IMG/VR virus record: IMGVR_UViG_3300012942_000116
Span: 1 to 28,000 of that record
Source of the DNA: a virus
Lineage: Duplodnaviria; Caudoviricetes
Direction: 5' to 3' (one strand)
Length of the DNA stretch: 28,000 bases
In this document: piece by piece, positions 467 to 27,839 of the stretch
Layout of the letters: every line of letters begins with the position of its first letter
Numbering within the stretch: the first letter of the stretch is position 1
The notes under the pieces: generated by a model
What the model saw: only the letters and a program-made list of their open reading frames with translations
Databases searched by the model: none
Told to the model about the DNA's origin: nothing
Program-made: the position numbers and the translations under genes

Positions 467-1259
467 GGCTCTTGAGACAGAAGGAAAACCTAAGCCTCTT
501 GCTTCTACGAAACGTTATTACAAAGGCTTTCTCTACGGAGAGTATGGAGTTGGAAAAACAAAGCTTTGCGGTGACTTGGTACAGAAGAAAGGTTTGTGCA
601 TTGCGACTGACACTGGCCCGGAGACTTTCTTCAACCACCCAGAACTTCTAGACAAGATTGACATTGTCGAGTACCAGGGTTTAAGCCACATTACTGCTAT
701 CGCTAGTGCAATTGCAGAAGGGGCTACAGTAGGTGAGACCGATTACAGTGAATATGACTTAGTTTGGGTTGACACTGTTAGTCAGGTACAAGAAGAATAT
801 CTCGACTTCCTTAACGATAACTTCACCTACACTGGTAACTATCGTGAGAAGGCTATGCCGCGTGATCCTAGGTCTGGTCTTACTGTTCAGGAAGTCATTG
901 GACAGCCAGATTACCATTTGACTCGTAACCACATGAGACACCCTATCAAATCCTTGATTAAGGCGCCGGTTGATGTTATATTCACTGCACACCTTCGGGA
1001 GCCCTCGCCGATTGAACAAGGAAAAGGTAAGATTACTAAACGACCTACTCTTACTGAGACAGTCTTTAAATTAATCGCCCGCGAGGCTACCTGGATGGGG
1101 TTGATGGAAAGGGAAGGAACTAAACGAACAATTCAATTTGAAACTACAAAGAAATCAGTAGCAAAAAGTAGAATCGCAGAACTAGACAACAAAGTAATTA
1201 ATGCAGACGCTCTACCGAACATTCTGCATGAATGGAAACGAAAGAATTCAGGAGAATAA
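447..1259 (+). CDS. AAA-family ATPase (AAA_24 / Sak4-like recombination ATPase)
   Basis: Walker A GEYGVGKT, Walker B VWVDT, and an FTAH motif. Start moved from 333 to ATG 447 (MDQKLL), which is preceded by GAGG. Confidence 0.75.
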   Translation: MDQKLLKALETEGKPKPLASTKRYYKGFLYGEYGVGKTKLCGDLVQKKGLCIATDTGPETFFNHPELLDKIDIVEYQGLSHITAIASAIAEGATVGETDYSEYDLVWVDTVSQVQEEYLDFLNDNFTYTGNYREKAMPRDPRSGLTVQEVIGQPDYHLTRNHMRHPIKSLIKAPVDVIFTAHLREPSPIEQGKGKITKRPTLTETVFKLIAREATWMGLMEREGTKRTIQFETTKKSVAKSRIAELDNKVINADALPNILHEWKRKNSGE

Positions 1260-1261
1260 AA

Positions 1262-1732
1262 ATGGGACTTTTTGGTGAGCAGGACGCTTCACAGGTTAAC
1301 GCCGATCCGTTCTTCATCCCGGAGGACATTTACCGTAGTGTCCTTACGGATATGACTCTTCGACAGACTCAGGCCGGTGGCTACGGTCTTTCGATGAACT
1401 GGACTGTGGACGATGAAGATTCGGAATACTACCAGACTGGTATTTCGGATTGGATTAACATCTACTTCCATGACGAGGATGCTAAGGATTCTGCTACGCT
1501 TCGTCGTGCGCGGGCTACTCTTAAGCAGCGTCTGACGGAGATCGGTCTTTCTGAGGCTCAGATGAATGAACTTGTTGACGATTCTGGTGACGAGCCGGTT
1601 CTCAACGATGACATTGTTGACGAGTTTATCGGAACGGTTCGCCTTGTTCAGGTTGTCAACTCGCGCGACAAGAATGACCCGGAGAAGGTCTACACGAACA
1701 TTCGTAAGATTAGTGCTCTTAGCGAGGACTGA
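1262..1732 (+). CDS. putative single-stranded DNA-binding protein
   Basis: Acidic, beta-rich protein directly after the Sak4-like ATPase, ending in ...KVYTNIRKI. ATG 1262 follows GGAG. Call is mainly from gene context. Confidence 0.5.
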   Translation: MGLFGEQDASQVNADPFFIPEDIYRSVLTDMTLRQTQAGGYGLSMNWTVDDEDSEYYQTGISDWINIYFHDEDAKDSATLRRARATLKQRLTEIGLSEAQMNELVDDSGDEPVLNDDIVDEFIGTVRLVQVVNSRDKNDPEKVYTNIRKISALSED

Positions 1733-1806
1733 TTAAAAGTGGTGCCTACGCGGAAGTAGGACAAATGTCGTGAATGCGAAACAGCCACTAAAATAACTAA
1801 ATACAA

Positions 1807-1887
1807 GGCTACAGAGCGAGCCACCCATCTATTTTATTCATTCATTGCTTGACTCGTACTGATTGAATTCACTTTCGTTCTGTAGCC
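1807..1887 (+). ncRNA. putative structured RNA hairpin closed by GGCTACAG/CTGTAGCC
   Basis: ggctacagagcgag (1807-1820) pairs with ttcgttctgtagcc (1874-1887) with two G-U pairs on the + strand. It ends 2 nt before tRNA-Gln. Confidence 0.5.
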
Positions 1888-1889
1888 GA

Positions 1890-1961
1890 AGCCCCATAGT
1901 GTAACTGGCAGCACGCGATACTTTGGTTTTCGTAGTTGAGGTTCGAATCCTTGTGGGGCTG
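1890..1961 (+). tRNA. tRNA-Gln (anticodon UUG)
   Basis: Acceptor agcccca/tggggct, D-arm gtgtaactggcagcac, anticodon stem cgata/tttcg (one mismatch) with loop ctTTGgt, T-arm tgagg-ttcgaat-ccttg, discriminator G. CCA is not encoded. Confidence 0.9.
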
Positions 1962-1963
1962 CT

Positions 1964-2002
1964 TGATCCGGCGCCTTTAGATTCTATATGAATCCCGGAT
2001 CA
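1964..2002 (+). other. bulged hairpin between tRNAs
   Basis: tgatccgg (1964-1971) / ccggatca (1995-2002) plus inner gattc-tatat-gaatc, with an 8-nt one-sided bulge. Confidence 0.55.
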
Positions 2003-2011
2003 GAGTAAAGT

Positions 2012-2076
2012 GGCTACAGGAGCGCAACTAATAGGAATAACGAAATCACAGGCTTTCGCCTATTAGTCCTGTAGCC
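2012..2076 (+). ncRNA. putative structured RNA: three-segment bulged hairpin closed by GGCTACAGGA/TCCTGTAGCC
   Basis: Perfect segments ggctacagga/tcctgtagcc, ctaatagg/cctattag and cgaaa/tttcg (23 bp in total), with 6-nt and 5-nt bulges on the 5' arm only. Confidence 0.6.
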
Positions 2077-2084
2077 TACCTCTA

Positions 2085-2157
2085 GCCCTAGTACTCCAAT
2101 GGCAGAGAGAAGCGACTTAAAATCGTTCCAGTGTGGGTTCGAGTCCCACTTAGGGCA
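2085..2157 (+). tRNA. tRNA-Leu (anticodon UAA), short variable region
   Basis: Acceptor gccctag/ttagggc, D-arm ctc-caatggca-gag, anticodon stem agcga/tcgtt with loop ctTAAaa, T-arm gtggg-ttcgagt-cccac, discriminator A. Confidence 0.9.
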
Positions 2158-2177
2158 CTTTCTAGGAGGTAAGGTAA

Positions 2178-2357
2178 ATGGAAGAAGCAATTAAGAAATT
2201 AGATAATTGGCTTAATTCAGGTCGTTGGGAAGGCGAGCCGAACGAAGTAAGAGTTCTGCTTAGTTCTTCTAAAATAGAAGATGATGTTACCTTAGGCGAT
2301 TTGAAAAGTATTGTTAGCGACTTCCATGCGATGCGAGAGCATATCTCCAATTTGTGA
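2178..2357 (+). CDS. hypothetical protein, 59 aa (not in ORF track)
   Basis: ATG 2178 follows strong AGGAGGTAAGG. Translation MEEAIKKLDNWLNSGRWEGEPNEVRVLL...HISNL, stop TGA 2355-2357. Confidence 0.75.
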   Translation: MEEAIKKLDNWLNSGRWEGEPNEVRVLLSSSKIEDDVTLGDLKSIVSDFHAMREHISNL

Positions 2358-2505
2358 GTACGGCACAGAGAGAGTAATTGGGTACGTACAGTGTCAGAAA
2401 AACCAGCACTTGGATTATCACGCAGCAGAGATTTTAATTCAGCCAGAAGAGCATCACAGAGATTACAGTCTACCAAGAGTAACAATCTGGAAAACATGGA
2501 GGTAA
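2326..2505 (+). CDS. small Cys/His-rich hypothetical protein
   Basis: MRCESISPICEY...QCQKNQHLDYH... fills the gap between flanking genes. Start is uncertain. Confidence 0.5.
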   Translation: MRCESISPICEYGTERVIGYVQCQKNQHLDYHAAEILIQPEEHHRDYSLPRVTIWKTWR

Positions 2506-2510
2506 AGGAA

Positions 2511-2783
2511 ATGGCACAAGACTATGGTAATGAAGTTATGAAGGCAAGTGAAAGCCCCATCAATCCTTTTGACGGATTAGCAAGACTTGAGCTTACAATT
2601 GATTCTATGTACGACACTCTTGCTCCTGTTTTAAAGGCTCCTGACACTGACTCCCCTCATGCTCCGTTTATGAAGAAGGAAGATCGAAGCGAAATTAATA
2701 ATAACTATAGGGAGCTTAACTTCCGAATTCATGAAGCAACCAATCGTCTGAAAGAACTTACTGAACGAATCGACATTTACTAG
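2511..2783 (+). CDS. hypothetical protein with C-terminal coiled coil
   Basis: Part of ORF 2391..2783. ATG 2511 (MAQDYG) follows GGAGGTAAAGGA. Confidence 0.7.
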   Translation: MAQDYGNEVMKASESPINPFDGLARLELTIDSMYDTLAPVLKAPDTDSPHAPFMKKEDRSEINNNYRELNFRIHEATNRLKELTERIDIY

Positions 2784-2793
2784 TAATTAAATT

Positions 2794-2824
2794 GAAAGGC
2801 TATCTGTAAATTGGATGGTCTTTC
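2794..2824 (+). terminator. stem-loop (terminator or tRNA-processing hairpin)
   Basis: gaaaggctatc (2794-2804) / gatggtctttc (2814-2824) with G-U pairs, between a stop codon and tRNA-Lys. Confidence 0.45.
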
Positions 2825-2827
2825 TAC

Positions 2828-2900
2828 GGAACGTTAGCTCAGTTGGTAGAGCAGCGGACTTTTAATCCGCGGGTCCAGGGTTCAAGCCCCTGACGTTCCA
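2828..2900 (+). tRNA. tRNA-Lys (anticodon UUU)
   Basis: Acceptor ggaacgt/acgttcc, D-arm gctc-agttggta-gagc, anticodon stem gcgga/tccgc with loop ctTTTaa, T-arm caggg-ttcaagc-ccctg. Confidence 0.95.
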
Positions 2901-2914
2901 CTTTCTTTCTAGGG

Positions 2915-4657
2915 ATGGATAGATGGGACCGTACGTTGCAGACTGCGGAGTTTCTGCATGAACTATTTGACGGCCTAGAAGGCTATGTCTACGCACCTAC
3001 CAAGGAAGGTGAAGGCGAAGACGCGGAGTGGCTACAGAACTTTTTTAAATGGCCCGCGCAGGAGGAAAAACTCCTAGGTTTCATTGCAGAGAATGCCGAA
3101 ACAAAAGACTGTTACGTAGCACCTGCAATCTTCAAGGCTCCATCTTCTAAGAAGAACTCTTTCAAAGAGACTAACTTTGTATGGATTGAGTTTGACGGAA
3201 ACGCGCCGTCAATTCTCCCGTCGGGAATTCCTGACCCAACTATTAAGATTCAATCTTCTGTAGCCAAGCACGAGCATTGGTATTGGCGGCTACAGGAGTC
3301 CTCTGTTAACAAGAATGTAGTTGAGGGGCTTACTCAGAAGCTAGCCTACACTCTTGATGCAGATAAAAGTGATTGGGACGTTAATCAGGTTCTGCGAATT
3401 CCTGGAACTCGTCATCAAGAGTCTGGTCGCCGCGTAAAGGTACTTAGGTCTACAGGCCAAAAACACGCTATTGGTGATTTTCGCGGCCTTGTTACTAATA
3501 TTCCTGCACCTGTAGCCGCGGGAGTCTATAAGGAAATTCCTGACCTTAAGGCTACTGTAGCCAAGTATACGTGGCCCGAAGAAGCTATTGATTTATTTTA
3601 CAAAGAGTCGCAGCCGATAGGTTCTCGGTCTAGTGCAATGACTGCGCTCAGTTTTCATTGTGTAGAAATGGGTATGAGCGATGCTGAATGTTACGCAGTC
3701 CTTTTTGATGCAGACCAACGTTGGGGAAAATATCGAAGTCGCAGTCCAGAGGATCGGGCGAAACGACTTATTAGTATCATTAGCCATTGTCGATCGAAGA
3801 AGGAGTTGGAAGCAAACCTCGTTCTTACAGAACGTGATAGTTTCCTCAAGCTTGCCGATTTCCGAGCACTTGACCTCCGCGTTGACTGGCTGTATCAAGA
3901 CTTTATCACAACACAAGGACTTGGAATCATTTCCGCTGCACCCGGCACTGGAAAGAGCACGCTCTCGCTTAGACTCGGATTTAACCTCATCTGTGGCAAA
4001 CCATTCCTTAAATGGGATTTTGGAAATGTGCCTGCACAACGCGTTGGATTCCTTTCGCTAGAAATGGCAAGCAATGAGTTGAAGAAATTCATTGTAGATG
4101 ACATGTGGCCGAGTCTTCCGTCAATCGAAGCCGCGCTAATTGATCAGAATTTTTTTCTGCTTCCTCTTGGTTACCAGATGCCATTGTGGACTAAGGAATC
4201 CCAGAAGTTCGTAACAGAAGAGATTCAGCGAAATGGAATTACATTCTTGATTATCGACTCACTCAAAGCAGCCACAAATCTTGATGAAAAGAACATGGAC
4301 AAGTTTTTTGAGTGGATCAATAAGACTCTGCGTAGCGAACTTGGAATTACCGTTTGGTTGATTCACCACAATCGTAAGCCACAGAGTGATGGTAATGGTT
4401 CTAGGGCCCCTAAAGGACTTGAAGACTTCTACGGAGACACTTTTATCACCGCGCATCCGAGTACGGCTGTAGGTTTGCACCGTGTTAGCAAAGCAACACT
4501 TAAGTTTTATCCGTTCAAAGTAAGGCTTGCGGAAGAACTTGATCCGTTCTATATTGCTAGAGATAGAACCCTTGATTTCAAAGTAGTTACTGGTGAAGTA
4601 AAGGAAGAAGAGAATGCCGCTACAGGAACTGACTCCACTACAAGCACTAAGTTTTGA
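2915..4657 (+). CDS. primase-helicase fusion (RepB-like primase N-terminus, AAA_25/RecA-type helicase C-terminus)
   Basis: N-terminal WIEFD, QSS...HEHWYW and D..QVLRIPGT motifs. C-terminal Walker A AAPGTGKS, SLEM, Walker B LIIDS and IHHNRK. Confidence 0.85.
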   Translation: MDRWDRTLQTAEFLHELFDGLEGYVYAPTKEGEGEDAEWLQNFFKWPAQEEKLLGFIAENAETKDCYVAPAIFKAPSSKKNSFKETNFVWIEFDGNAPSILPSGIPDPTIKIQSSVAKHEHWYWRLQESSVNKNVVEGLTQKLAYTLDADKSDWDVNQVLRIPGTRHQESGRRVKVLRSTGQKHAIGDFRGLVTNIPAPVAAGVYKEIPDLKATVAKYTWPEEAIDLFYKESQPIGSRSSAMTALSFHCVEMGMSDAECYAVLFDADQRWGKYRSRSPEDRAKRLISIISHCRSKKELEANLVLTERDSFLKLADFRALDLRVDWLYQDFITTQGLGIISAAPGTGKSTLSLRLGFNLICGKPFLKWDFGNVPAQRVGFLSLEMASNELKKFIVDDMWPSLPSIEAALIDQNFFLLPLGYQMPLWTKESQKFVTEEIQRNGITFLIIDSLKAATNLDEKNMDKFFEWINKTLRSELGITVWLIHHNRKPQSDGNGSRAPKGLEDFYGDTFITAHPSTAVGLHRVSKATLKFYPFKVRLAEELDPFYIARDRTLDFKVVTGEVKEEENAATGTDSTTSTKF

Positions 4658-6437
4658 CGAGCAACTTGATCTTTTTGCTTCTTGCAATTACGCGGCCATT
4701 GATACAGAGGGCTACAGCAGAAATGTTTATGGAATTTCTGTAGCAGCAAAGGGCTTGTTTAGTGGGTTGTACTTTCCTTTAGACCACATTGGTGAAAATC
4801 TTTCTGTAGCCCAAACTAAAAAGTTGTATTCAATTATTGAACGGCTCGATACCGCTGTTTTTCATAATGCGGCGCACGACCTCGAAGTTCTTGAGTCGAT
4901 TGATTTGGAGTACAAAGGTTGGTTTCATGATACAATGCTTATGGCGCATTGGGTTAATGAAGAAGAGTTTTCTTATGATCTAGATAATCTGACTCGCGTG
5001 TATAAGGTGTCTCGTAAGCAGATGCCGAAGTCTATGAAGATGATTATTGATTCAGATGGTTGGCGAGCAGTTCCTCTTCGTTTAATGACTGCCTACTCGG
5101 GTCAAGACGCTTTCTCTACTCTTGAATTAGATGAGAAAATTACTGAGAAGTTTTGGACTCAATTCGATCGTGAACTTTGGGCTACAGAACAAAAGTTTAT
5201 TCGTGAGAATATGATGCCTATGATGCGTCGTGGAATACGTATTGATACGGACTATGCTCTCACTGAGTACATGCGCGGCGATCAGATTATGAAGCAGTTG
5301 AAGGAAGAATTAGGTATTAATCCTTCTTCTTCTAAAGACTTGCAGAAGTTGTTTATTGAGGACCTTGGACTTCCTGTAGTCAAGCACACAAAAGCTTGTG
5401 AAAAGTGTTTCCCTAAGCAGAAGTTTATACGTAAGCAAGGCGTACATACTCATGATGCTAAGCCTTCTTTTGATAAAGAGGCTATGGAAAAGTACGATGT
5501 TTTGCTGGCTAACAATGAAGATCCGCGTGCTAAGCAAATTCTAACTTTCAAGGGTTGGCAGAAGACCTGCTCTAGTAACTACCTTCCTTACATGAAGTTA
5601 GTGGATGAGAATCATTATTTGCATCCTGGTTATAAACTTCATGGAACGCGTACAGGTCGTCTCTCATGTGCAGAGCCAAACCTTCAGCAGATTCCTAAGC
5701 ATTCTGATAAGGATTGGAACGGCGGGTTGAAGCAAGTTTTCATTCCTACTGAAGGTTTCGACAATTGGACTGTAGACTACAGTCAGCTTCAATTCAGAAT
5801 GACTGTTGCTTACGCAGTTGCTTTTGCTCGTGAGAATGGTTTTGAATGTTTTGCGGAAGAAGATCTTCTCGCAGCCTTCAATGATTTTGAGCGAGACGTC
5901 TTTACGGAAATGACAGGTTCATTGGCAATGAAACGTGACGATGTAAAGACTATGGTTTACTTGATTCTTTTCGGTGGTGGAGGACAGAGGGCTGCGGATG
6001 CATTCCGAATTTCTTTGGAAATGGGACAAAGTCGAGTTAATGATTTCTACGAGCAATTCCCAAACATCAAGCGTGTAAGTAAGAGTGCGGAGTCTAACGC
6101 TCGTAGGAATGGTCATGTACGCTACTGGACGGGCCGCAGACGGCATTTCGGCCACGGAGCGCCCTTCTACCGCGCCTTCAACGCCGTTATTCAAGGTGGA
6201 GAGGCAGAAATTATGAAGAGGGCTATGATCTATGCTACAGAAGAAATGGATGAATCAGAGGCTCGTTTCGTTCTTCAGATTCACGATGAACTTGTTCCCG
6301 AAATCAAAAAAGGAATGGAAGATAAGTACCTGCCCATTGTGCAAAACGCAATGGCAAGAGCAGGACAAGACTTCTCCGACTTTATTGGAGTAGACATTAA
6401 ATTCAAAACCGATGTGAAACCTTGGGGTAAGAAATGA
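4614..6437 (+). CDS. polA: DNA polymerase, family A, with 3'-5' exonuclease domain
   Basis: Exo motifs IDTE, FHNAAHD and YSGQD. Polymerase motifs TRTGRLSCAEPNLQQIP, A DYSQLQFR, B RDDVKTMVYLILFG, NAVIQG and C QIHDEL. Confidence 0.95.
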   Translation: MPLQELTPLQALSFDEQLDLFASCNYAAIDTEGYSRNVYGISVAAKGLFSGLYFPLDHIGENLSVAQTKKLYSIIERLDTAVFHNAAHDLEVLESIDLEYKGWFHDTMLMAHWVNEEEFSYDLDNLTRVYKVSRKQMPKSMKMIIDSDGWRAVPLRLMTAYSGQDAFSTLELDEKITEKFWTQFDRELWATEQKFIRENMMPMMRRGIRIDTDYALTEYMRGDQIMKQLKEELGINPSSSKDLQKLFIEDLGLPVVKHTKACEKCFPKQKFIRKQGVHTHDAKPSFDKEAMEKYDVLLANNEDPRAKQILTFKGWQKTCSSNYLPYMKLVDENHYLHPGYKLHGTRTGRLSCAEPNLQQIPKHSDKDWNGGLKQVFIPTEGFDNWTVDYSQLQFRMTVAYAVAFARENGFECFAEEDLLAAFNDFERDVFTEMTGSLAMKRDDVKTMVYLILFGGGGQRAADAFRISLEMGQSRVNDFYEQFPNIKRVSKSAESNARRNGHVRYWTGRRRHFGHGAPFYRAFNAVIQGGEAEIMKRAMIYATEEMDESEARFVLQIHDELVPEIKKGMEDKYLPIVQNAMARAGQDFSDFIGVDIKFKTDVKPWGKK

Positions 6438-6613
6438 CCGAAGAGCAAGAATTAAGGTTAGCAGCATTAGACCGTGCACTTACTTTTGTACGAGATAAGA
6501 AGTTTGCAGATATGCCTCCTAGTGGTGTAACCTTTAGTGGCTCACGTACTACGCATACTGAAGACGACGTTGTCAAAATTGCTAAGAAATTTGAAGGGTA
6601 CCTTACCAAATGA
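6434..6613 (+). CDS. hypothetical protein, 59 aa (not in ORF track)
   Basis: MTEEQELRLAALDRAL...DVVKIAKKFEGYLTK. ATGA overlaps with both the polymerase stop and the next start. Confidence 0.8.
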   Translation: MTEEQELRLAALDRALTFVRDKKFADMPPSGVTFSGSRTTHTEDDVVKIAKKFEGYLTK

Positions 6614-6975
6614 GTATCGCTATTCCAGGAGCCTTAGAGCTTCAGTTCGTCGCTTCTGTTAATCAGACAGCCAGAATTTGTCACGAAATTTCTTTATCAA
6701 AAGGTTTTGGGGACGATCGTAGTTTTGGAGATATTATCTCCTTAATTCATTCGGAACTTAGTGAAGCCTTAGAAGAGTTTCGTAACGGGCACGAACCTAC
6801 TGAGATTTATTTCAATGGGCAAAAGCCTGAGGGAATTCCAATCGAGTTGGCCGATGCGGTGATTCGTATTTTCCAGTATTGTGATACTGCTGGAATTGAT
6901 CTCGGTACCGCAATTATCACTAAAATGGAATTCAATAAAACTCGTCCTTCTAAGCACGGCGGAAAGGTAATTTAA
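6610..6975 (+). CDS. MazG-like nucleotide pyrophosphohydrolase
   Basis: LIHSELSEALEEFR ... ELADAVIRIF ... KMEFNKTR, the ExxE / ExxD metal-binding helices of all-alpha NTP pyrophosphatases. Confidence 0.85.
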   Translation: MSIAIPGALELQFVASVNQTARICHEISLSKGFGDDRSFGDIISLIHSELSEALEEFRNGHEPTEIYFNGQKPEGIPIELADAVIRIFQYCDTAGIDLGTAIITKMEFNKTRPSKHGGKVI

Positions 6976-7310
6976 TGGAGCCTCAGGGACCTACTGAAGA
7001 GCAGCGTGAAAAAATTCTTGAGTTGGTACACTCTATGCAAACAGGTGTACAGTTTGAAATTGCTCATGAAGAAGGAACAGTTGAAATCGATTTTGGGCCG
7101 AGTTCTTCTGCTTCTAATCGTAAGCATTTACGTGTAGGTGTAAACAATGCTCTGGTTGAGATTGGTGCTTTACGAAACACTCTCATTAAGTGTGGTGTTT
7201 TTGAAGAGCATATTTTCTGGAGTACTTATATCGAGGCTTTAGAAGAAGAAGTCAAGGGCTACGAAAAGAAACTGTCTGAGTTTATGGGCTCAGTGGTTCA
7301 CCTACACTAA
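6975..7310 (+). CDS. hypothetical protein
   Basis: 111-aa ORF with TAATG coupling at both ends. Confidence 0.75.
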   Translation: MEPQGPTEEQREKILELVHSMQTGVQFEIAHEEGTVEIDFGPSSSASNRKHLRVGVNNALVEIGALRNTLIKCGVFEEHIFWSTYIEALEEEVKGYEKKLSEFMGSVVHLH

Positions 7311-7789
7311 TGACTATTAATCTTCTTGGAACTCAGCCCATTCACTATCTGGCAATTGACCCAGGTAGTTCTAGAACGGGTTGGGCTGCCGCAGGAGAAG
7401 ATGGCACTGTTCTCGGGAACGGTGTCATTGTTGGAGAAGACGAATTCTTAGACTGGCTTGAAGAACAAGAGTTTAAAGTAGCTATTGTTGAAACTTATAG
7501 AAACCGTGGTAACCGTCACGATTCTTGGTCAAAAATGCCAGTCTCTCAGCACGTTGGTGCTATCAAAAGAATTCTTCGTAAGGCAAAAGCAGAAATCGTA
7601 GAGCAAGAGCCCAGCCCGGCTTTGGCTACAGGGCTAAGGTTTCTAGGCCGCGCAAACGAGTTTAAAGGTAAGCACGTACCTGACGAGATTTCGGCTACAG
7701 CCCATTTAGTTTTCTATCTTCGATTACACAGAATTGGAATTCACGGAGTAGGAGTAGCACGTGCCTCAAAAGACAGTCAAGGTGGGTAA
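7310..7789 (+). CDS. RuvC-like Holliday junction resolvase
   Basis: YLAIDPGSSRTGWA, IVETY, and late HVPDEISA acidic motif (RNase H fold). Confidence 0.7.
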   Translation: MTINLLGTQPIHYLAIDPGSSRTGWAAAGEDGTVLGNGVIVGEDEFLDWLEEQEFKVAIVETYRNRGNRHDSWSKMPVSQHVGAIKRILRKAKAEIVEQEPSPALATGLRFLGRANEFKGKHVPDEISATAHLVFYLRLHRIGIHGVGVARASKDSQGG

Positions 7790-8538: not shown

Positions 8539-8539
8539 G

Positions 8540-20209: not shown

Positions 20210-20218
20210 TTTTATTCC

Positions 20219-21046
20219 TTAATTGTAGTAAAAGGTAAATTTAGCTACACCAGGAGTTCCGGCACCAGAAGTAGCACTAAAACTAATAGATTTAGTGCCT
20301 GCTGCCCCTCCACCAGAACCAAATCCACTACCCTGAGAAGCAACTACAGAAGCAGTTGAAGAAGCAGCACCTAATCCACCTGTACCCCAGAATCCTGTCT
20401 TAACTCCACTTCTTTGAGAGGCATCTGTGAAAATACCTTCTCCAGGTGCTCCTTGAAAACCTACAGATCTTGGATTAGTGGCAGAATTAGCTAATGATCC
20501 GTAAGGGCTACGTGTTGAAGAACTTGCGTACAAATTAGAGGTAGAACCTCCACCATCTGGATCAGTTTCAAAAGGATATCTGTATCCTACTCCGGCTCCG
20601 TCTGCTCCTACGGTAACACCAAATAAAGTAGTAGCACCACTAGCTATTCCTACAGAACAAGAGCCCCAAGAAGTAGTTCCGCCAGCGTTTCCAGTGAGCG
20701 TGGCACTTTGAGCTGGACCAACTGCTGCGCCTCCTGCTCCAATTACAACTGCTTGTTGACTATACAATTCGATTGGAAGTTCAATGCAAGCATAGGGTCC
20801 GCTAGTACCACCTGAAACACTAAGGGAGCTGTTAGTGGAATTAGCATTACCAGAACCTCCACCTGCTACTAATTCAATTTTAACTCGCTTTGCGCCAGCA
20901 GTGGCAGCAGGAGAAGTTCCTGAAATTGTCATTGTAGTAACATCAGGAGTTTTGGTGGAAACAGAGGCAGCCGCGTCAAGGACGTCTGTCTTAGTCGCTA
21001 AACTAGACAGGTCTACAGGAACAGGAGGATATTTTACGAGTCCCAT
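20219..21046 (-). CDS. glycine-rich tail fibre / receptor-binding-like protein
   Basis: ELVAGGGSG, VVIGAGGA, GNAGGTTSWG, GFGSGGGA and GAGTPG Gly-rich repeats. Confidence 0.6.
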   Translation of the reverse strand: MGLVKYPPVPVDLSSLATKTDVLDAAASVSTKTPDVTTMTISGTSPAATAGAKRVKIELVAGGGSGNANSTNSSLSVSGGTSGPYACIELPIELYSQQAVVIGAGGAAVGPAQSATLTGNAGGTTSWGSCSVGIASGATTLFGVTVGADGAGVGYRYPFETDPDGGGSTSNLYASSSTRSPYGSLANSATNPRSVGFQGAPGEGIFTDASQRSGVKTGFWGTGGLGAASSTASVVASQGSGFGSGGGAAGTKSISFSATSGAGTPGVAKFTFYYN

Positions 21047-21351
21047 TAGGTGATCTTCTTACCGTTGATGTGAACTGCTAAACAGTTAGCGTTAGAACCT
21101 TGAACGTTAACTTTCTTTCCTGTAGCTAGAACTTCATAGCCAGTCCAAGAAAGAACGTCGCCAGGAGACATTGCTGTCCCCGCAATTAGTTCAATTCCAT
21201 CCAACTTGATAGTAATAGTTGAAGCAGTAGTTTTACAGGTAACCGTGATAGACGAGATAACCGCTGTAGTGTTTGCCTCTACAGTGTATTCGTCAGCAGC
21301 TACTGTAGGAGCATAGCCTCTAAAAAAATTAGCCTCTGTAAACGTAGGCAT
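21046..21351 (-). CDS. small beta-rich structural protein
   Basis: 101-aa ORF (YTV...TTAVISSITV...) coupled to the Gly-rich gene. Confidence 0.6.
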   Translation of the reverse strand: MPTFTEANFFRGYAPTVAADEYTVEANTTAVISSITVTCKTTASTITIKLDGIELIAGTAMSPGDVLSWTGYEVLATGKKVNVQGSNANCLAVHINGKKIT

Positions 21352-21352
21352 T

Positions 21353-22000
21353 TTAGAATCCCATCGACATTAACATTTCGATTTGTAAGTTGTTCATCAA
21401 ACTACCTACAAGTGTGCTTACAGAGTTAGCAGCGTTCGTGGCCGCGTCTGTGGCAGTAGTCGCGCTATTAGCGGCATTGGTTGCACTATTGGTGGCGCTA
21501 GTTGCTGCGTTAGAAGCAGTAGTAGCGTCCGCAGAAATTTGATCAATAGTTGTATTTGCTGCATTTGAAATTGCTTGAATGTTTTTCAATAGCGTAATGT
21601 AATCTACGCCTGCTAGGACGGCTACAGTAGGTTCTCCGTCAGGAACTAGATTAAGGTCGAGTTCGTCTGTTCCCACGAAAACTTGGAAGTACTTAACAAC
21701 AGTGATAGTTCGGTCTCCCCCGAAATCTACAATTGCTTTAAATACTCCACTGAATGCAGTTACTGTAGCACCAGAAGAATCTACAAATCCTTCTTGGTCA
21801 CAGTGAGGAAAATCGAAAGTAACAGTACCTTCGTTGTCTGTAAGGTTGCTATCAATTAAGTAAAGTTCATCACCTGTAGCGGTCCAAACTAAATTTCGAT
21901 CAAGAGAAACTGTAGCAGTAATTGACGCAACCGTTCCAAGAACGTCAAGACTACCGCCAAAGGAAACTTCAGCGGTTGTAATTCCTTCAGGTAGCGCCAT
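21353..22000 (-). CDS. putative tail-fibre N-terminal / minor structural protein
   Basis: Beta-rich N-terminus followed by an A/T/S/N heptad repeat (ATTASNAATSATNSATNAANSATTA). GGAG RBS. Confidence 0.55.
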   Translation of the reverse strand: MALPEGITTAEVSFGGSLDVLGTVASITATVSLDRNLVWTATGDELYLIDSNLTDNEGTVTFDFPHCDQEGFVDSSGATVTAFSGVFKAIVDFGGDRTITVVKYFQVFVGTDELDLNLVPDGEPTVAVLAGVDYITLLKNIQAISNAANTTIDQISADATTASNAATSATNSATNAANSATTATDAATNAANSVSTLVGSLMNNLQIEMLMSMGF

Positions 22001-22030
22001 TACTTTGCTCCGTTCTTGAACGCTAACCTT

Positions 22031-22075
22031 AAGAAAGGGCTACAGGGGCCAGAAGCCTAGATTCCCCTGTAGCCC
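22031..22075 (-). terminator. intrinsic terminator after the major capsid gene
   Basis: On the - strand: gggctacagggg-aatctaggcttctgg-cccctgtagccc-tttctt, a perfect 12-bp stem plus U-rich tail starting 10 nt after the stop. Confidence 0.8.
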
Positions 22076-22085
22076 AATCTTAAAA

Positions 22086-23306
22086 TTAACCTTCGATGAG
22101 GTCCTTTAAGCGAGCGTGAGCGTTACGTCGGTGTGTACCAAGTTCCATGTAACGGAACATAGTTGCCGAGTAAGCGTCATACTTACCAGTCGAGTCAGAA
22201 ACTCGCTCCCACCGCGAACCGTCACGATCCATGAAGGCCCAGTCGTCCTCTGCGTAAATCTTGATTTCCTTCTCGTTGAGGAAAACAATCTCATTACTGG
22301 GAGAGTCAACGTCGTCAACCATCGGAATTTCCGTACCATTGTACGTAAACCCAAGAGCCTTAAAACCACCCTCAAAATCAAGAGTATTAGTAATACGACG
22401 TTGCTGTGAAAGAAGATTGAAGTAAGCACGACGAACACCAAGACCCATAAAGGCCGCTGTCGGCGTGCCACCACCCTTCTTACGAAGTTGGTCACAGATA
22501 TCAATTGCAAGACCCTCAGTAAACGCACGAAGCGTTCCACCGTTGTCGTCAACAATTGATTTCCAGACCGGAACAGTACTCGGATCAACTCCGTAAAGTT
22601 CGCCCTCGTCCTGAACAATGGCTCCTAAACCAGTAATTTCGTTATTGAGGTTACCAGTACGAACTAAGTAGTCACCAGAAGCGGACGAAGTACCCGCCGC
22701 AGTAGTGAACGTAACCGTAGTAGTAGTACCATCCGACGAAAGACCAGTAATAGTTTTACCAGAAGCCCGAAGAGTATCAGTGTTATCATAAATATCGATA
22801 ACCATATCCTCTTCAAGATACGTAGCCTGAGCGTCACTACACTTAAAAGTAGTAGTAGAACCGGCAGCGTTAGCAACCGCAAGAGTACCCGAACCGTCAC
22901 CATAAACTTGGCGAGCAAGGTCCTTGCGAAGGTACTCTTTCAGACCAGTAACTTCTTGGTCAAGAGCAGAAGCAAAAGCCTGGAAGTTTTTCTCAGCAAG
23001 AGCAAAAGTCTGACCAGTAAGTTGGATAGAACCATAAAGGTTCATAAGAGGAATGTAAGCAGACTCGTAACTTTGCTTGCCCGGAACAGGAAGAGCCTGT
23101 CCTTCAGCACGCGCACCAAGACCTTGGTTGCGCTTAGTACGAATTGGGAATCGAACGTAACTACCGCCAACTTCAGAAGTAACACCTTCCGAAGAAGTTT
23201 CGATTCGCTTAAGACCAGTAACTTCAGTTTGAAGTTGATCGTGGACCGTGCCTTCATAAATCTCTTTAAGGAGATTAGAGACAGTGGTCATAGTAGCGCC
23301 AGCCAC
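22086..23306 (-). CDS. major capsid protein (HK97 fold)
   Basis: 406 aa following the scaffold gene. LKEIYEG, LRKDLARQVYGDGSG and ELGTHRRNAHARL patterns. AGGAG RBS, followed by a terminator. Confidence 0.85.
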   Translation of the reverse strand: MAGATMTTVSNLLKEIYEGTVHDQLQTEVTGLKRIETSSEGVTSEVGGSYVRFPIRTKRNQGLGARAEGQALPVPGKQSYESAYIPLMNLYGSIQLTGQTFALAEKNFQAFASALDQEVTGLKEYLRKDLARQVYGDGSGTLAVANAAGSTTTFKCSDAQATYLEEDMVIDIYDNTDTLRASGKTITGLSSDGTTTTVTFTTAAGTSSASGDYLVRTGNLNNEITGLGAIVQDEGELYGVDPSTVPVWKSIVDDNGGTLRAFTEGLAIDICDQLRKKGGGTPTAAFMGLGVRRAYFNLLSQQRRITNTLDFEGGFKALGFTYNGTEIPMVDDVDSPSNEIVFLNEKEIKIYAEDDWAFMDRDGSRWERVSDSTGKYDAYSATMFRYMELGTHRRNAHARLKDLIEG

Positions 23307-23340
23307 TTTGAACTCCTAAAATCTAAAAGGTTTTTATAAG

Positions 23341-24219
23341 TTAACTTTGCTGAGCCGTAGCCTGTAATTGCGCTGCAATTGCGGCACGACGCTCCGCAGG
23401 AGTAGCAGTCTTGGGATCAAACTGGCTACTCGGAGCAATTCCGCCTCCACCTAAAACTTGTGGAGCAGCGACTCGTTGTTGCTGGGTCTTAACTTCATTA
23501 ACAAAGTTAAAGTACTGCTCAACATAAGGCTTAAGCGACGTGACATTCTTTCCAGCATTAACATCTTGAAGAGCCTTGGTAATTACCCAACCCTCATCAA
23601 ATTGACCTTGGGCCTTGAATTCCTCTTTGAGGCTGGTAATTTCATCAACTACTTTTTGATCTTCGGCCTGCTGTGCCTTTTGCTGCTGTTCAGAAAGAAG
23701 TGCCTGAGCCATTGTGTTAACAATGGTTTCAATTTCCTTAAATTTAGGATGATTAAGGAAATCACTCGGAATCTCTGCGCTACCATCCCCAGGTTCCTGC
23801 CCCGACGGTTCTTCGGCTACAGGAGGTAATAAACCATTGTCAGTCACGTACTGCTGTAAACTCTGGAAAACTTTAACAGGGTCTTGCTCTAAAGCTTGCT
23901 GTAAAGTAATTGCCTGTTGAATTTGTTCAGGTTGCAGTCCCGCGTCCTTGAAAGGCTTAAACGGTTCCCACTGAGTTTGGACCTCTTGGATTTTACGAGA
24001 AAAATTAGAATCCCAATTTTTAAAATGCGGTGTAACTTGACTGTGAAGTTGCTGCGGGATGATTTGCATAACTTCATCCCAAGCACTCGACAAAGCTTTA
24101 TCTGCCCCACTATCTCCATCAGCAGGAGAACCAATTGGATTTTCCTGTGCAATTGGAGTTTCGGCTACAGAAGTTGTAGGTGCTTCGGGCTCGGGTGCAG
24201 TGCCACTTGGAACAGACAT
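23341..24219 (-). CDS. capsid scaffolding protein
   Basis: 292 aa with an acidic Pro-rich N-terminus, helical middle and C-terminal ERRAAIAAQL helix, directly upstream of the capsid gene. Confidence 0.7.
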   Translation of the reverse strand: MSVPSGTAPEPEAPTTSVAETPIAQENPIGSPADGDSGADKALSSAWDEVMQIIPQQLHSQVTPHFKNWDSNFSRKIQEVQTQWEPFKPFKDAGLQPEQIQQAITLQQALEQDPVKVFQSLQQYVTDNGLLPPVAEEPSGQEPGDGSAEIPSDFLNHPKFKEIETIVNTMAQALLSEQQQKAQQAEDQKVVDEITSLKEEFKAQGQFDEGWVITKALQDVNAGKNVTSLKPYVEQYFNFVNEVKTQQQRVAAPQVLGGGGIAPSSQFDPKTATPAERRAAIAAQLQATAQQS

Positions 24220-24269
24220 TTTACTACTTTCTTACTATTGGCTTCTTATATTTTTACCTTCCGGCAACC

Positions 24270-24746
24270 TTATTTAAAGGAGTCCGGCTGGGTAAGAGTG
24301 CGGGCCGCAAAAACCTTATCGTTAAGAGTCATTTTGTTGACGTCGTAACCGTTCGCGGTAAGGAAGGTGTCTAAATTACCAATGGAGTCGTAAGGACGAC
24401 TAGCAACTAACACTGCTTTGTCCCCTGCGGCAGTTGAAGCTTTTGCGGCCGGACTAAACGTGAGAGTTGCCGAACCAGAGGTTTGGGCAAAAGAAACTGC
24501 TTGGAAAACAGTGTCTTCTTTAAAAGCGCTGGCAGAAGTTTGCAAAGCAAACGACTCACCTGAGCGTAGGACGTTAGTTCCGTCCGTTAGATCAGGTGCG
24601 CCACCAACGATAGTAGTAGTTGAACCTGCGCCCGTTGCGACAAAAACAGTAGGACCAAGAGGCTCAACACTACCAGACTGGGCATCGTCTTTAACTCGAT
24701 GCTTATCTAAGAAATTTAACTCCGGCGGAGTAAGTTGATTTCCCAT
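24270..24746 (-). CDS. hypothetical virion-associated protein
   Basis: 158-aa ORF between portal and scaffold. Its central beta-rich part resembles the internal GSTTT...TVTF..AA..S.A.GD segment of the capsid protein. Confidence 0.6.
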   Translation of the reverse strand: MGNQLTPPELNFLDKHRVKDDAQSGSVEPLGPTVFVATGAGSTTTIVGGAPDLTDGTNVLRSGESFALQTSASAFKEDTVFQAVSFAQTSGSATLTFSPAAKASTAAGDKAVLVASRPYDSIGNLDTFLTANGYDVNKMTLNDKVFAARTLTQPDSFK

Positions 24747-24759
24747 TACTTATTAACCA

Positions 24760-26982
24760 TTAACTTTCAATTGACGGCATACCGCTAAATTGATTAGGTT
24801 GCGTTCCTCCGCTATCCTGCGCCCCGCCAGGCGGCGGGCTCCCAGGGCCAGAGCCGTTACCAGCCATGCTAGCGGATTGCATGGCAGCCTGTTGCATTTG
24901 TTCTTGCTGCATTGCTTGTTGATGTGCATTAACGTGATCATCAAAAAGTTTTTTGGCTACAGGAGATAATGCATCAAAGGCTTGAGACTTGCGATAACGA
25001 TTGTGACGCTCAATGTGCATAGCATTATTGTCCCAATTATTTACAGGAACAATAAGAGGTGGTTGAAGAACAACTCCGTTGGCAACAATATTGCCTTGTT
25101 GGTCAATTTGAATTTCACCAGTTTGCAACGCTTGAGCAAAACCAGGCTGTTGGGCAAGTTGTTGCTTTTGAGCAAGATTCCATTGCTGAATTTGTTCATC
25201 AGTAACTTGAGCCATGCGCAAGTTTTCACGTTGTGCTTGACGAACGTCAATTTGAATTTGATCGTAAAGTTTTTCTGCCCCACCAATCTCAAGAAGTTCA
25301 AGGCCGCGCTGCGGATCAATAAACCCAAATTTCATTAAGTCCATAATGAATGCTTGCTTGGCGGCCTTAGAAACAGGCATTGCCGAGCCGGCCTCAGTAC
25401 GAACGTCAGTGTTATCCCTAAGGTCTGCACCTTGGAACATCTGAACGTCAAAGGTACCGTCTACACCAGTAATTTTAATCTGGTGGTCTACGTCCCAATA
25501 CTGCTTAACGTAGAACAGAGTCTGACGAGCAATTTTAGCAGTTGCTTCCTCGATAGAAGTGAAGGTATAAGTTAACTTACCCTCGTCTTGCTCCTGAAGA
25601 AAACTAATTGCTGTAGCCGCAGTAACTCCCGGCGGAGTTTGTCCCTTGGTAACTTCATGCTGGCCGGAAATATCGTTCATATCACTTTCGATACGATCGA
25701 GTTCTTGCAGCACGTAAGAAGGAATTCCTTGAAGAGGAATAGGAGTAGGTGCCTTGAAACCAGGACGATAGAAAATAATCTGTCCAGGTTCAGAAGTTAC
25801 CTTCGTATGATCGATAGAACCTAATTCCGCAGCAAGTTGCGGCTTAGACATTTTGTTCTTGGATTCAATAATTTGACCACGAGTACGGTTGAATTCTCGT
25901 TGTAAAGGAATTAAGTCAGTAATTACTGAATCCGCATAGAACTTACCAGTCTCAATATGACGAATGTGAGCAAAAGGGAATTCTCCGTGCTCGTAAGGTA
26001 ATTGAGGCCAGAAATTAATTAGTTGATCGCCAACAATGGTAACTAATCCACCACCAGGTAGCATTGAATTTACGCCAGGCTTAACCCAAGCTTCAACAAC
26101 AAGAGTCTGGTTCTTTTTGGACTGAACCGTATCCATCACAGAATTATAGGCTTCATCAATCTCGCCTAGTTTATCCGTGGTTTTGCGAATAGATTCAGCA
26201 GTTTGTTGCTGTGCTTGTTGGTACAAAGAAGCGATTTGTTCCTTATTTCTCATCGAGGCGTGGAGAACAAAAGGCTGACACTCAAGTTCAACTTCAGTTA
26301 AGTCAGGAACAAAAATGTGGAAAGGAGGAACTGTCTGATAATCAATGTCACCTTGGAGTTGATTTAATTGATCGACTTTCGCATCGTTCCAGAACGACTT
26401 GATAAAACCATTGCCAGTAGTTGAAGTCCAAAAGATTGCTCGACGAAAGATTGCATCTAACTTGTGAGAATCTTGGATAGAACTCCAAATTTGTTCAGCC
26501 GCCTGCGCAGCGAACAAGTCATCGTCATTAGATGAAGAAGGAACCACGTAAGTGTCTGGTCGTTGGCTAGAAAGTTTAGCCATTTCAGTTCGCATCAAGG
26601 GACGAACTTTATTGATAACCGGACGTGAGCGATAGTAAGGAGCAGGAGGCGTGACTAACTTGAAATGACTAGCAGCGCCTTTAGTTTCAATTGCTTGAAC
26701 GTTTTGCTTGCCAAAGTAGAAAGCAAGATTAAGGTACCACTGTTTTTCTGATTGCCAACGATCGCTCTTAGCTTTAGTGAAACTATTCTTCACCCAGTCA
26801 GTTAGACGTTGCTTATCCTTATCAGAAAGACTATCAGCCTGATTATTCGTAGCAACATTACTTACTGGAATCGGTAAGTTCAGTCCATCCTTCGACACCG
26901 AGTTCAGCAAATGTGTCAGCGAGCTCTTGATCGGCTGCTGTTCCATATTCATGCTGCTCATAATCTGGTTCACCAGTTCCAC
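24760..26982 (-). CDS. portal protein (podovirus / P22-like); start codon uncertain
   Basis: About 700 aa. INKVRP, G.GFIK..W, FPF, DLIPLQREFN, DMNDISGQHEV..G and TAATAI motifs, with a Q-rich C-terminus. Confidence 0.85.
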   Translation of the reverse strand: MELVNQIMSSMNMEQQPIKSSLTHLLNSVSKDGLNLPIPVSNVATNNQADSLSDKDKQRLTDWVKNSFTKAKSDRWQSEKQWYLNLAFYFGKQNVQAIETKGAASHFKLVTPPAPYYRSRPVINKVRPLMRTEMAKLSSQRPDTYVVPSSSNDDDLFAAQAAEQIWSSIQDSHKLDAIFRRAIFWTSTTGNGFIKSFWNDAKVDQLNQLQGDIDYQTVPPFHIFVPDLTEVELECQPFVLHASMRNKEQIASLYQQAQQQTAESIRKTTDKLGEIDEAYNSVMDTVQSKKNQTLVVEAWVKPGVNSMLPGGGLVTIVGDQLINFWPQLPYEHGEFPFAHIRHIETGKFYADSVITDLIPLQREFNRTRGQIIESKNKMSKPQLAAELGSIDHTKVTSEPGQIIFYRPGFKAPTPIPLQGIPSYVLQELDRIESDMNDISGQHEVTKGQTPPGVTAATAISFLQEQDEGKLTYTFTSIEEATAKIARQTLFYVKQYWDVDHQIKITGVDGTFDVQMFQGADLRDNTDVRTEAGSAMPVSKAAKQAFIMDLMKFGFIDPQRGLELLEIGGAEKLYDQIQIDVRQAQRENLRMAQVTDEQIQQWNLAQKQQLAQQPGFAQALQTGEIQIDQQGNIVANGVVLQPPLIVPVNNWDNNAMHIERHNRYRKSQAFDALSPVAKKLFDDHVNAHQQAMQQEQMQQAAMQSASMAGNGSGPGSPPPGGAQDSGGTQPNQFSGMPSIES

Positions 26983-27265
26983 TTAATCTGGATAATTCAG
27001 CCACGTCGTTACGTGGTAAATTTTCAGGAAATTCTAAATCTAAGTTGGCTAAACTTGCGTACGTTTTAAAATCAGAACTTTGAAGACGGTTCAGAAGGTC
27101 CTTCGACTTTTCCTGTTCCGCTTCCAGTAAGGTCAAGAGTTGATTGTAATTCTGTGTCATTAGGCTTTTCATCTGTCGATTCCACAGTAAGAACAGAAGA
27201 CAGATCGTCAGTAACAACAGGAGTACGGTGCTTAATAAGAAAATCGCTAAGTTGACGGATAGCAT
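26858..27265 (-). CDS. membrane-anchored coiled-coil protein
   Basis: N-terminal hydrophobic run of about 25 aa, then coiled coil and acidic tail. ATG is preceded by GAGGAAG. Confidence 0.6.
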   Translation of the reverse strand: MLSVNLAIFLLSTVLLLLLTICLLFLLWNRQMKSLMTQNYNQLLTLLEAEQEKSKDLLNRLQSSDFKTYASLANLDLEFPENLPRNDVAELSRLSGTGEPDYEQHEYGTAADQELADTFAELGVEGWTELTDSSK

Positions 27266-27578
27266 TTTCTTCTTCCTCAGTTAGTAAAAATGAATTTGCT
27301 TGAGACTCAAGTTCCTCGGCTACAGGAGTTTCGGCTACAGAAGGTTCCTCGATTAGTCCAACCGCGCGACCAACTGCTTTTGCACATTCGAAGCAAAGAT
27401 ATAGAGCACCTTCAAAATCTAAGGAAACTCCTAAATCAAGAGCAAGTTCCTTACCAGTAAAAGGGAATCCACAAGTGATACATTTATGAGGAAGAACAGT
27501 ATTCTGCACTAACACAAATAAGGCTACAGCCTGATTAGTGTTCTTGCGATTATTTTTTAGGGTGGCTTCTTTTGGCAT
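27072..27578 (-). CDS. zinc-finger-containing hypothetical protein
   Basis: CITC ... LYLCFEC, followed by an acidic low-complexity tail. Confidence 0.65.
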   Translation of the reverse strand: MPKEATLKNNRKNTNQAVALFVLVQNTVLPHKCITCGFPFTGKELALDLGVSLDFEGALYLCFECAKAVGRAVGLIEEPSVAETPVAEELESQANSFLLTEEEENAIRQLSDFLIKHRTPVVTDDLSSVLTVESTDEKPNDTELQSTLDLTGSGTGKVEGPSEPSSKF

Positions 27579-27584
27579 GACTAG

Positions 27585-27839
27585 TTACTTGGCTTTCTTG
27601 ACCTTCGTTGCAGTCTCAGCCTTGGCAGACGACGAAGCTTTCTTGGCTACAGAAACGTTCTTATTGGACTGAGTCTTATTTGACTTACTGGTCGACGTGC
27701 TAGTTTTAGCTGCTCCGCGCTTGTGAGGTTTAATTCCAGCGGCCTCTTCACGTGCAGCATGGAAGCCTGCAATTTGTGCAGCCTGAACGTCGTCTAAATT
27801 CGGAATGTGAGCGTTAGGATTCTCAACCTTTTTACGCAT
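27585..27839 (-). CDS. small basic Lys/Ala/Ser-rich (histone-like tail) protein
   Basis: 84 aa, C-terminal half K/A/S/T-rich, TAATG-coupled with GGAG RBS. Confidence 0.7.
   Translation of the reverse strand: MRKKVENPNAHIPNLDDVQAAQIAGFHAAREEAAGIKPHKRGAAKTSTSTSKSNKTQSNKNVSVAKKASSSAKAETATKVKKAK

Follow-up and report, generated by a model that had tools for sequence, protein, structure and literature searches.

The DNA analysed here, referred to as the window, comprises the first 28,000 nucleotides (nt) of the IMG/VR virus record IMGVR_UViG_3300012942_000116 and belongs to a Jasminevirus-like actinobacterial podovirus, which is known from a 28-kb contig and whose genome is incomplete. A short word, GGCTACAG on one strand and CTGTAGCC on the other, is repeated through the genes of the window, and it was found, in lineage-specific variants, in a large family of phages that encode a related primase-helicase. 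The word, as 5'-CTGTAGCC-3' on the template, is probably where the RepB'-like primase-helicase of the phage would start lagging-strand fragments.

An exact count yielded 47 copies of the 8-mer GGCTACAG/CTGTAGCC (31 on the plus strand and 16 on the minus strand) and 61 copies of the 7-mer GCTACAG/CTGTAGC (36 and 25, respectively), the same numbers as those approximately given in an earlier note on this DNA. Both are the top-ranked words of their length in the window, where a third-order Markov model predicts 2.3 copies of the 8-mer and 7.9 copies of the 7-mer. The enrichment also persisted against synonymous-codon shuffles of 34 window genes, one of the types of null model that the earlier note had proposed. 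In two schemes of 300 shuffles each, the second of which keeps the next base, the 41 copies of the 8-mer in these genes compare with shuffle means of 1.4 (maximum 6) and 2.4 (maximum 7), and the 56 copies of the 7-mer with means of 7.0 (maximum 16) and 11.6 (maximum 19). The G+C content of the window is 44.3%, slightly above the value of about 42% that had been assumed previously.

Coding DNA holds 55 of the 61 copies of the 7-mer. Those within genes are divided between 27 sense and 29 antisense copies, both strands being represented in both gene arms, and they occupy five codon registers (sense frames 18, 3 and 6; antisense frames 28 and 1) with no copy in the frame that would read TAG, exactly as the earlier note had described. 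The orientation bias with transcription or towards one strand, which is a trait of stoperators and Chi sites, was not found for the word of the window. Single-base variants of the 8-mer are close to background at seven of its eight positions, and a change is tolerated only at the first G. On the 3' side of the core, R-A-G is preferred and the conserved flank stops at about 11 bases: GGCTACAG-R-A accounts for 30 of the 47 copies of the 8-mer, and the 11-mers GGCTACAGAAG and GGCTACAGGAG for 20 of the 47, so the extension to 11-mers, previously called usual, is better described as common.

In order to describe the word beyond the window, 160 loci were retrieved around homologues of the primase-helicase. 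Loci of at least 8 kb with a primase match were passed through a filter that required a heptamer of the form NNNAC[AG][GC] among the top six words with log10 P <= -4.5. This filter was passed by 107 of the 135 loci, the 135 including the named phages and the window; the window's own contig (L094) was left out of the 107. After removal of near-duplicates, 81 loci remained, with the words CTACAG (44 loci), CCACAG (16), CGACAG (10), CCACAC (5), TTACAG (4), CGACAC (1) and GCACAG (1). Named phages among the relatives show clear enrichment (observed/expected): CCACAG in Jasmine (101/30) and Adat (90/28), CGACAG in DS1 (116/41) and Shocker (84/46), and CTACAG in ctEqG8 (98/40). The word, which had been treated as special to one genome, is thus a property of a large phage family, in which each relative has its own variant. 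Since cultured relatives bear their own variants, an assembly artefact is ruled out. Two observations on other words were made in the same loci. In L079, the word ranked first is ACCGTG/CACGGT (45/16), which may represent another form of the site (CCACGG). In the Shocker group (Shocker, L006, and L076, L084 and L082), a second and stronger word, CCTTTACAG (38/0.7 in Shocker), partly clusters in the terminal repeats and coexists with the evenly spaced CGACAG; Shocker additionally contains TACCCTA (25/0.8), clustered near both ends.

The distribution of the word along the genomes was analysed in the 81 loci, which contain 3,136 sites, an average of one in 1,103 nt on each strand. Gaps between neighbours on the same strand are depleted above 5 kb (15 vs 39 expected) and below 100 nt, while those of 1-3 kb are in excess; matched control hexamers have more long gaps. 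The two strands are largely independent of each other, save for a small excess of pairs 25-50 nt apart. The coefficient of variation (CV) of the gaps on the two strands is 0.26/0.31 for Huwbert, 0.55/0.45 for Koji and 0.70/0.62 for Jasmine; sites placed at random would give about 0.96. Evenness was detected on one strand in Lauer, PMBT14 and Shocker. With CCACAC sites that follow each other almost regularly along each strand, Huwbert is the best cultured system for a test; its sites occur about every 1.8-2.5 kb. When the complete genomes were divided into 5-kb bins, no origin-type switch between strands appeared. Spacing of the kind expected for Okazaki fragments, with few long gaps per strand, is accordingly a feature of the pooled 81 loci and is not significant in the window alone.

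Conservation of silent positions was assessed in 18 pairs of related loci. Fourfold-degenerate sites that lie in the cognate word were unchanged in 344 of 425 cases, compared with 13,115 of 19,891 elsewhere, and the odds ratio stratified by pair and codon was 2.64. The corresponding ratios for non-cognate variants were 0.68-1.49, and among the 27 of 300 random hexamers with at least 100 sites the odds ratio was 2.40 at most. This is the greater conservation of synonymous positions that the earlier note had asked about, and together with the codon shuffles it agrees with the proposal made there that selection acts on the nucleic acid, not on the protein.

The genes with which the word travels were examined in eight distant phages, chosen from tblastn lists, whose primases are 22-25% identical to that of the window and which share only the replication module with it. 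A clear word was found in six of the eight, from the hosts Serratia, Pseudomonas, Gordonia, Microbacterium and Curtobacterium: CCACAC in Serratia phage Serbin (62/22.6), Pseudomonas phage PMBT14 (74/21.7) and Gordonia phage Lauer (80/29.7), GGCCACA in Microbacterium phage Koji (50/6.6), CCACACC in Microbacterium phage Huwbert (42/5.9) and AGCACAG in Curtobacterium phage Commonplace (32/3.0). Commonplace keeps the primase half of the protein but has a DUF3987 helicase and no match to the family A polymerase (PolA), and the word is still present; therefore, neither the SF4 helicase nor PolA is needed for the word. Conversely, the filter was failed by all five phages in which a related PolA occurs together with a different primase (Toprim in two, AEP-TOTE in two, not identified in one); their ranks were 69, 15, 89, 29 and 30. 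Phages of the same host differ, Koji having GGCCACA, Huwbert CCACACC and Dismas no word, and CCACAC is common to phages of Serratia, Pseudomonas and Gordonia. These observations support the conclusion that the word follows the primase, not the virion genes or the host. Enriched words were also noticed in two controls, GGACAAGC in Clostridium phage phi8074-B1 (L182; 24 copies vs 1.2 expected, distributed 22/2 by strand) and GGAACTG in HTVC023P (27/6); since these are strand-biased and clumped, they were not regarded as the same phenomenon.

The primase-helicase of the window (2915..4657, plus strand) has 580 amino acids (aa) and matches Pfam AAA_25, weakly RepB_primase, and phrog_3123. Its AlphaFold model has a mean confidence (pLDDT) of 88.6. 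According to fold comparison, the catalytic domain (residues 1-190; 2915..3484, plus strand) is similar to the AEP domain of S-2L PrimPol (VIA Z 19.9) and to RepB' (3h20; VIA Z 17.5, root mean square deviation 2.6, 167 aligned residues; Foldseek E 7.5e-10). The helicase domain (3851..4585, plus strand), assigned to SF4 (RepA/DnaB/T7 gp4-like) by fold and PDB profile matches, shows Z scores of 23.9 with RSF1010 RepA and 20.6 with T7 gp4. The N-terminal half of the primase has matches in 252 phage records. Of 48 homologues, 21 matched Pfam RepB_primase at E values of 0.5 or lower, the lowest being 9e-5. The residues D94, H121, D150 and R161 are invariant in the 48 homologues, and the spacing of D94/D150/R161 is that of D78/D134/R145 in RepB'. 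No match to a Toprim family was found, and the N-terminal domain of the window primase is folded as an AEP. The models thus identify the protein as a RepB'-like AEP primase fused to an SF4 helicase. Between the two domains, the model and the alignment columns place an all-helical domain, a predicted helix bundle (residues 211-304; 3545..3826, plus strand), with invariant R238-S239 and W270-x-K272. PriCT_1 matched 2 of the 48 homologues, weakly (E about 0.06), fold searches with a single-sequence model of this domain gave no clear match, and a phmmer search against the PDB found nothing. A single-protein primase scan of viral contigs had no result either. Homologues of the protein (including those of L010, L011, L012, L013 and L175) are often labelled 'DNA recombinase' or 'RecA-like DNA recombinase' in public records; the fold of their window homologue is that of an AEP primase joined to an SF4 helicase.

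If the primase reads the word, the two should vary together, and the earlier note had predicted that each relative would have its own motif co-varying with one gene. This was assessed in 55 loci (11 with the G variant and 44 with the T variant; four TTACAG loci and one ambiguous locus were left out), which as related sequences are not statistically independent. In the primase, position 273 gave the strongest result among 4,856 column-residue tests, with Tyr in 11 of 11 G loci vs 8 of 44 T loci (p 6e-7), and the second-best column was position 240 (p 5e-4); both lie in the helical domain (codons 3731-3733 and 3632-3634, respectively, plus strand). The best of 4,362 tests in PolA reached p 1.7e-3, and those in Sak4, RuvC and SSB, for which fewer loci were available, 5e-3 or weaker. 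Among 43 held-out loci, the 31 with Phe273 contained 278 CTACAG (128 expected) and 106 CGACAG (85), and the 11 with Tyr273 contained 170 CGACAG (70) and 56 CTACAG (50), one locus being unassigned. The tracking of the variable base by Phe or Tyr at position 273 is thereby confirmed in held-out loci, and the prediction is supported. For the C variant, no associated residue was found once its large clade had been thinned (best p 5e-4 of 4,651).

Sequence-specific primase sites are in themselves of an already known kind, and several systems can be compared with the one proposed here. In T7, gp4 performs sequence-specific lagging-strand priming with a DnaG/Toprim-type primase, the zinc domain of which reads a triplet. 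Like the window protein, gp4 is a primase fused to an SF4 helicase in a short-tailed phage with a family A polymerase as partner, but the window primase is an AEP and not a Toprim enzyme with a zinc domain. Phage NrS-1 has an 8-mer that is enriched in its genome. The NrS-1 enzyme is, according to the accessible text, likewise an AEP of a phage; it has a helix bundle and recognises a long site (GTGG and TTTGGTTA; GTG(G/A)); unlike the window primase, it has its own polymerase activity, its 8-mer is proposed to mark a specific start, and neither an even array per strand nor family-wide co-variation is described in that text (PMC8718748). RepB' of RSF1010 begins synthesis with dATP, at the T of a GTG triplet (PMC8567376, accessible part). 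It resembles the window primase in its catalytic fold, in the D/D/R spacing and in a sequence-specific start within a G-T-x triplet, and RepA resembles the helicase domain; in the window, however, primase and helicase are fused, and the site is a word of 6-8 bases with dozens of copies in genes. RepB' is described as having one 40-nt hairpin site per strand (ssiA/ssiB) at the origin; the window has 36 and 25 short sites on its strands instead of one long ssi site on each.

The helix bundle of pRN1 ORF904 reads GTG in the template 5'-CTGTGCTCA, where S310 and Y352 bond the third base and R309/S310 the nucleotide, as far as the accessible parts of the sources state (PMC13469122, PMC11009956). 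ORF904 likewise combines a catalytic and a helical domain; the word can be aligned with its template, and the R-S-x and W..Y motifs of the phage family would sit at the pRN1 contacts to the nucleotide and to the third base. On the template strand, the words of the family read CT-GTA-G, CT-GTG-G, CT-GTC-G, GT-GTG-G and CT-GTG-CT, so that the base that varies between lineages is the third position of the triplet (GTA, GTG or GTC): the triplet is GTG in the CCACAG, CCACAC and GCACAG lineages (as CT-GTG or GT-GTG), GTA in the window and GTC in others. Only the register of the triplet is taken as evidence, because the initial C-T of the pRN1 template was an experimental choice. As described, ORF904 differs in reading a triplet and in being fused to an SF3 helicase, whereas the C-terminal part of the window protein has an SF4/RecA fold, and the specificity of the phage family appears to span 6-8 bases with A, G or C as third base according to lineage.

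Other motifs dispersed through actinobacteriophage genomes (Cluster A stoperators, Cluster O 17-bp repeats, SAS/ESAS) also reach tens of copies per genome and are partly genic, but in the accessible text they are longer, mostly intergenic or oriented with transcription, and interpreted as regulatory (PMC4351075, PMC7302621). The window word is short, coding in most copies and indifferent to transcription. The accessible text of the papers on Jasmine (PMC5513430) and on Microbacterium phages (PMC7302621) does not mention the word, and no description of the word family was found in the literature searched, which mostly excluded subscription papers. Within that literature, no long, genome-wide word was found that is present on each strand, silently conserved and co-varying with a helix bundle across phages of several host phyla.

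Based on these comparisons, we infer the following course of events. The SF4 ring would unwind the fork and feed single-stranded template to the fused primase, as in T7. The helix bundle domain would read C-T-G-T-A-G(CC), and the catalytic domain would make a purine-rich primer beginning with A, either 5'-AG-R-A-R (in the pRN1 register) or 5'-ACAG-R-A-R (in the RepB' register). The purine-rich flank of the word would then correspond to the first bases of the primer, which the family A polymerase would extend. Because a site of 6-8 bases is too rare by chance for priming about every kb, selection would write the word into genes at silent and tolerant positions, and because forks would run in both directions, the word would be needed on both strands. 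A change in the helix bundle would entail a change of the word of the genome.

Several results weigh against this interpretation or limit it. Among the distant phages, the signal in Clostridium phage Clo-PEP-1 is weak (TCCACA 65/35.9), and no enriched word was found in 50 of the 186 kb of Streptomyces phage Quantum, which has a related primase. In Quantum (L174), a RepB-like primase and a DUF3987 helicase are located at 27724-30009, and the helix-bundle region gives no match to the family profile. One control podovirus (L184) without a match to the primase profile, the capsid of which is related and which has a DUF3987 protein labelled as a primase, passed the filter marginally (CGCACAG 22/7.7). 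Profile alignment of the helical domain to the pRN1 helix bundle, which puts R238-S239-x240 on R309-S310-R311 of pRN1, is weak (E 0.066; 1 of 40 shuffles scored higher), and the equation of W270..Y273 with W347..Y352 (Tyr273 corresponding to Y352) is a match by eye. Residue 273 is not a sufficient code, since the window primase itself has Tyr273 with the CTACAG word; in addition, the G variant is enriched in L145 and L150, the residue of which is Phe. In a sister-pair test, one PolA column equalled the score of the primase (5/7). Gene-tree parsimony does not separate the primase from PolA, Sak4 and SSB: the numbers of changes were first 11 vs 14, and on matched subsets 11 for the N-terminal half of the primase, 11 for the helicase half and 12 for PolA, 7/7/7 with Sak4 and 4/4/4 with SSB. 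A leave-one-out single-column predictor of the variable base was uninformative (best 0.81, primase and PolA alike). Finally, the spacing of the 7-mer in the window is not significantly even (CV 0.77 on the plus strand, P 0.08; 1.13 on the minus strand), and spacing is not even in DS1 and Serbin, nor for the CTACAG hexamer in ctEqG8.

Other explanations of the word have to be considered. The same primase may use it for strand-displacement starts or for re-priming after a stall in the manner of RSF1010, with the three convergent non-coding pairs of the window as possible origins. Both halves of the protein resemble RepB' and RepA of RSF1010, a leading-strand-only system according to the accessible text (PMC8567376), all six non-coding copies lie in convergent pairs, and the pooled loci have an excess of convergent pairs at 25-50 nt (60 vs 37.9, z 3.7). 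However, origins would need far fewer sites than the roughly one per kb found on each strand, where long gaps are depleted. Divergent pairs at 25-50 nt show a mild excess as well (53 vs 38.7), and other cross-strand distances are near random. We regard this use as unlikely. It is a little less likely still that another protein of the module is the reader, for example in a Chi-like signal for a Cas4-like exonuclease and Sak4, or in loading of an SF2 helicase. In every distant word-bearing phage, the annotated module includes an exonuclease and an ATPase, the gene trees tie, and the relatives of Koji Sak4, among the matches listed, come from the same phage groups as the primase matches and offer no clean control. 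Nevertheless, the strongest residue association is in the predicted helix bundle of the primase and is upheld in held-out loci, the word stands in the register of known helix-bundle sites, and Dismas, with a Cas4 exonuclease, PolA and a Toprim primase, has no word.

A mark for nicking, modification, ejection or packaging of virion DNA, or a decoy for a host protein, would fit the occurrence in both orientations and the genome-wide spread, and the second word of the Shocker group lies partly in terminal repeats. Against a virion, nicking or DNA-organising role stands the finding that tailed phages, long-tailed ones included, with unrelated virion genes have the word, and a decoy is disfavoured because phages of the same host differ and phages of different host phyla (the Serratia, Pseudomonas and Gordonia phages with CCACAC) agree. 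No methylase or nickase family was found among the 33 proteins of the window, the genome being incomplete, and WhiB, tried as a reader of the word, was rejected since it is found in only 13 of 158 loci. Such roles are therefore very improbable, and of the interpretations listed in the earlier note the priming signal is the one now favoured. A bias of codons or dipeptides could be suggested by the mild excess of the dipeptides AT (72/57.8), LQ (56/44.5) and VA (63/50.5), but it is refuted by the 600 codon-preserving shuffles, none of which gave more than 7 copies of the 8-mer, and is opposed by the five registers, the variants of cultured phages and the conserved silent sites; together with an artefact of assembly, it has a negligible probability.

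Under the preferred reading, in which the word is a priming site of the primase-helicase, the 36 plus-strand copies of GCTACAG (31 as GGCTACAG; 722..27652) are predicted to provide the template 5'-CTGTAGC(C)-3' on the minus strand. They are located at 723, 1808, 2013, 3031, 3289, 4619, 4711, 5181, 6234, 7625, 7694, 7999, 8675, 9537, 10425, 11852, 12164, 12800, 13586, 14339, 15068, 15080, 15739, 16944, 19144, 19354, 20061, 21621, 22039, 23816, 24164, 24956, 27319, 27334, 27523 and 27646; the first and the last (27646-27652) are the outermost copies of the window. The 25 minus-strand copies (16 as GGCTACAG; 1880..25617), with the predicted template on the plus strand, are at 1880, 2069, 3258, 3510, 3555, 4738, 4804, 8081, 9822, 10017, 11301, 11550, 12823, 13299, 13365, 13980, 15677, 15896, 17236, 21120, 21763, 21874, 21910, 22067 and 25611. 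Two of the three convergent non-coding pairs, 1808/1880 and 2013/2069 (1807..2076), each stop just ahead of a tRNA gene, and the third, 22039/22067 (22038..22074), is downstream of the major capsid gene. The tRNA genes are those for Gln (1890-1962), Leu (2085-2158) and Lys (2828-2901), the last directly before the primase gene.

Besides the primase-helicase, the window encodes a Sak4-like ATPase, a family A polymerase, two lysins, WhiB, a P22-like portal protein and a capsid protein. The capsid protein shares 41-42% identity with its counterparts in the phages Jasmine and Adat (Arthrobacter), Shocker (Microbacterium) and DS1 (Cellulosimicrobium); Jasmine is described as a podovirus with 1,330-bp terminal repeats (PMC5513430, accessible part). 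In the replication module, the family A DNA polymerase (4614..6437, plus strand; Pfam DNA_pol_A and exo1) would extend the primers. The Sak4-like ATPase (447-1259, plus strand; phrog_124) and an acidic 166-aa protein (1232-1732, plus strand), a putative SSB by its position that has no family match in Pfam and phrog searches, are the candidates for a rival reader. WhiB is encoded opposite to a 188-aa gene, and the two genes overlap in the 3' part of the latter (window 7761-8538), as in the annotation of Jasmine and Adat. In addition, AGCT is strongly avoided in the window genes (49 sites vs about 136-148 after codon shuffles) and reaches 0.08 of expectation in L001; CTAG and CTGCAG are also low in the window in the Markov test. 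The avoidance of AGCT is likely an evasion of a host restriction enzyme with a site of the AluI type.

As for the family as a whole, we consider it reasonably probable, though less so than the priming role itself, that the specificity of the primase was lengthened from a triplet to a word of 6-8 bases in a very large phage group that crosses hosts. Selection on silent positions would keep the word evenly spaced on each strand and so hard-code the starts of Okazaki fragments, and the word and the helix bundle would co-evolve through a partly readable code (Phe/Tyr 273), with repeated switches of the word throughout the genome. A handful of sequence-specific primases are known, with sites that were determined in bench experiments. 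In this family, the genome sequence could reveal the site directly for hundreds of phages, several of which are in culture with harmless hosts (Jasmine, Adat, Koji, Huwbert, Lauer). Such a natural library of primase-site pairs may show how a helix bundle reads DNA, and Huwbert, with its CV of about 0.3, would permit a direct test of whether the spacing of sites sets the length of Okazaki fragments. The reading would also give a function to a gene often annotated as a RecA-like recombinase. It would present a case of a replication signal that constrains silent codons genome-wide and is rewritten when the enzyme changes, and would serve as a warning that recoding of such phages could erase signals they need.

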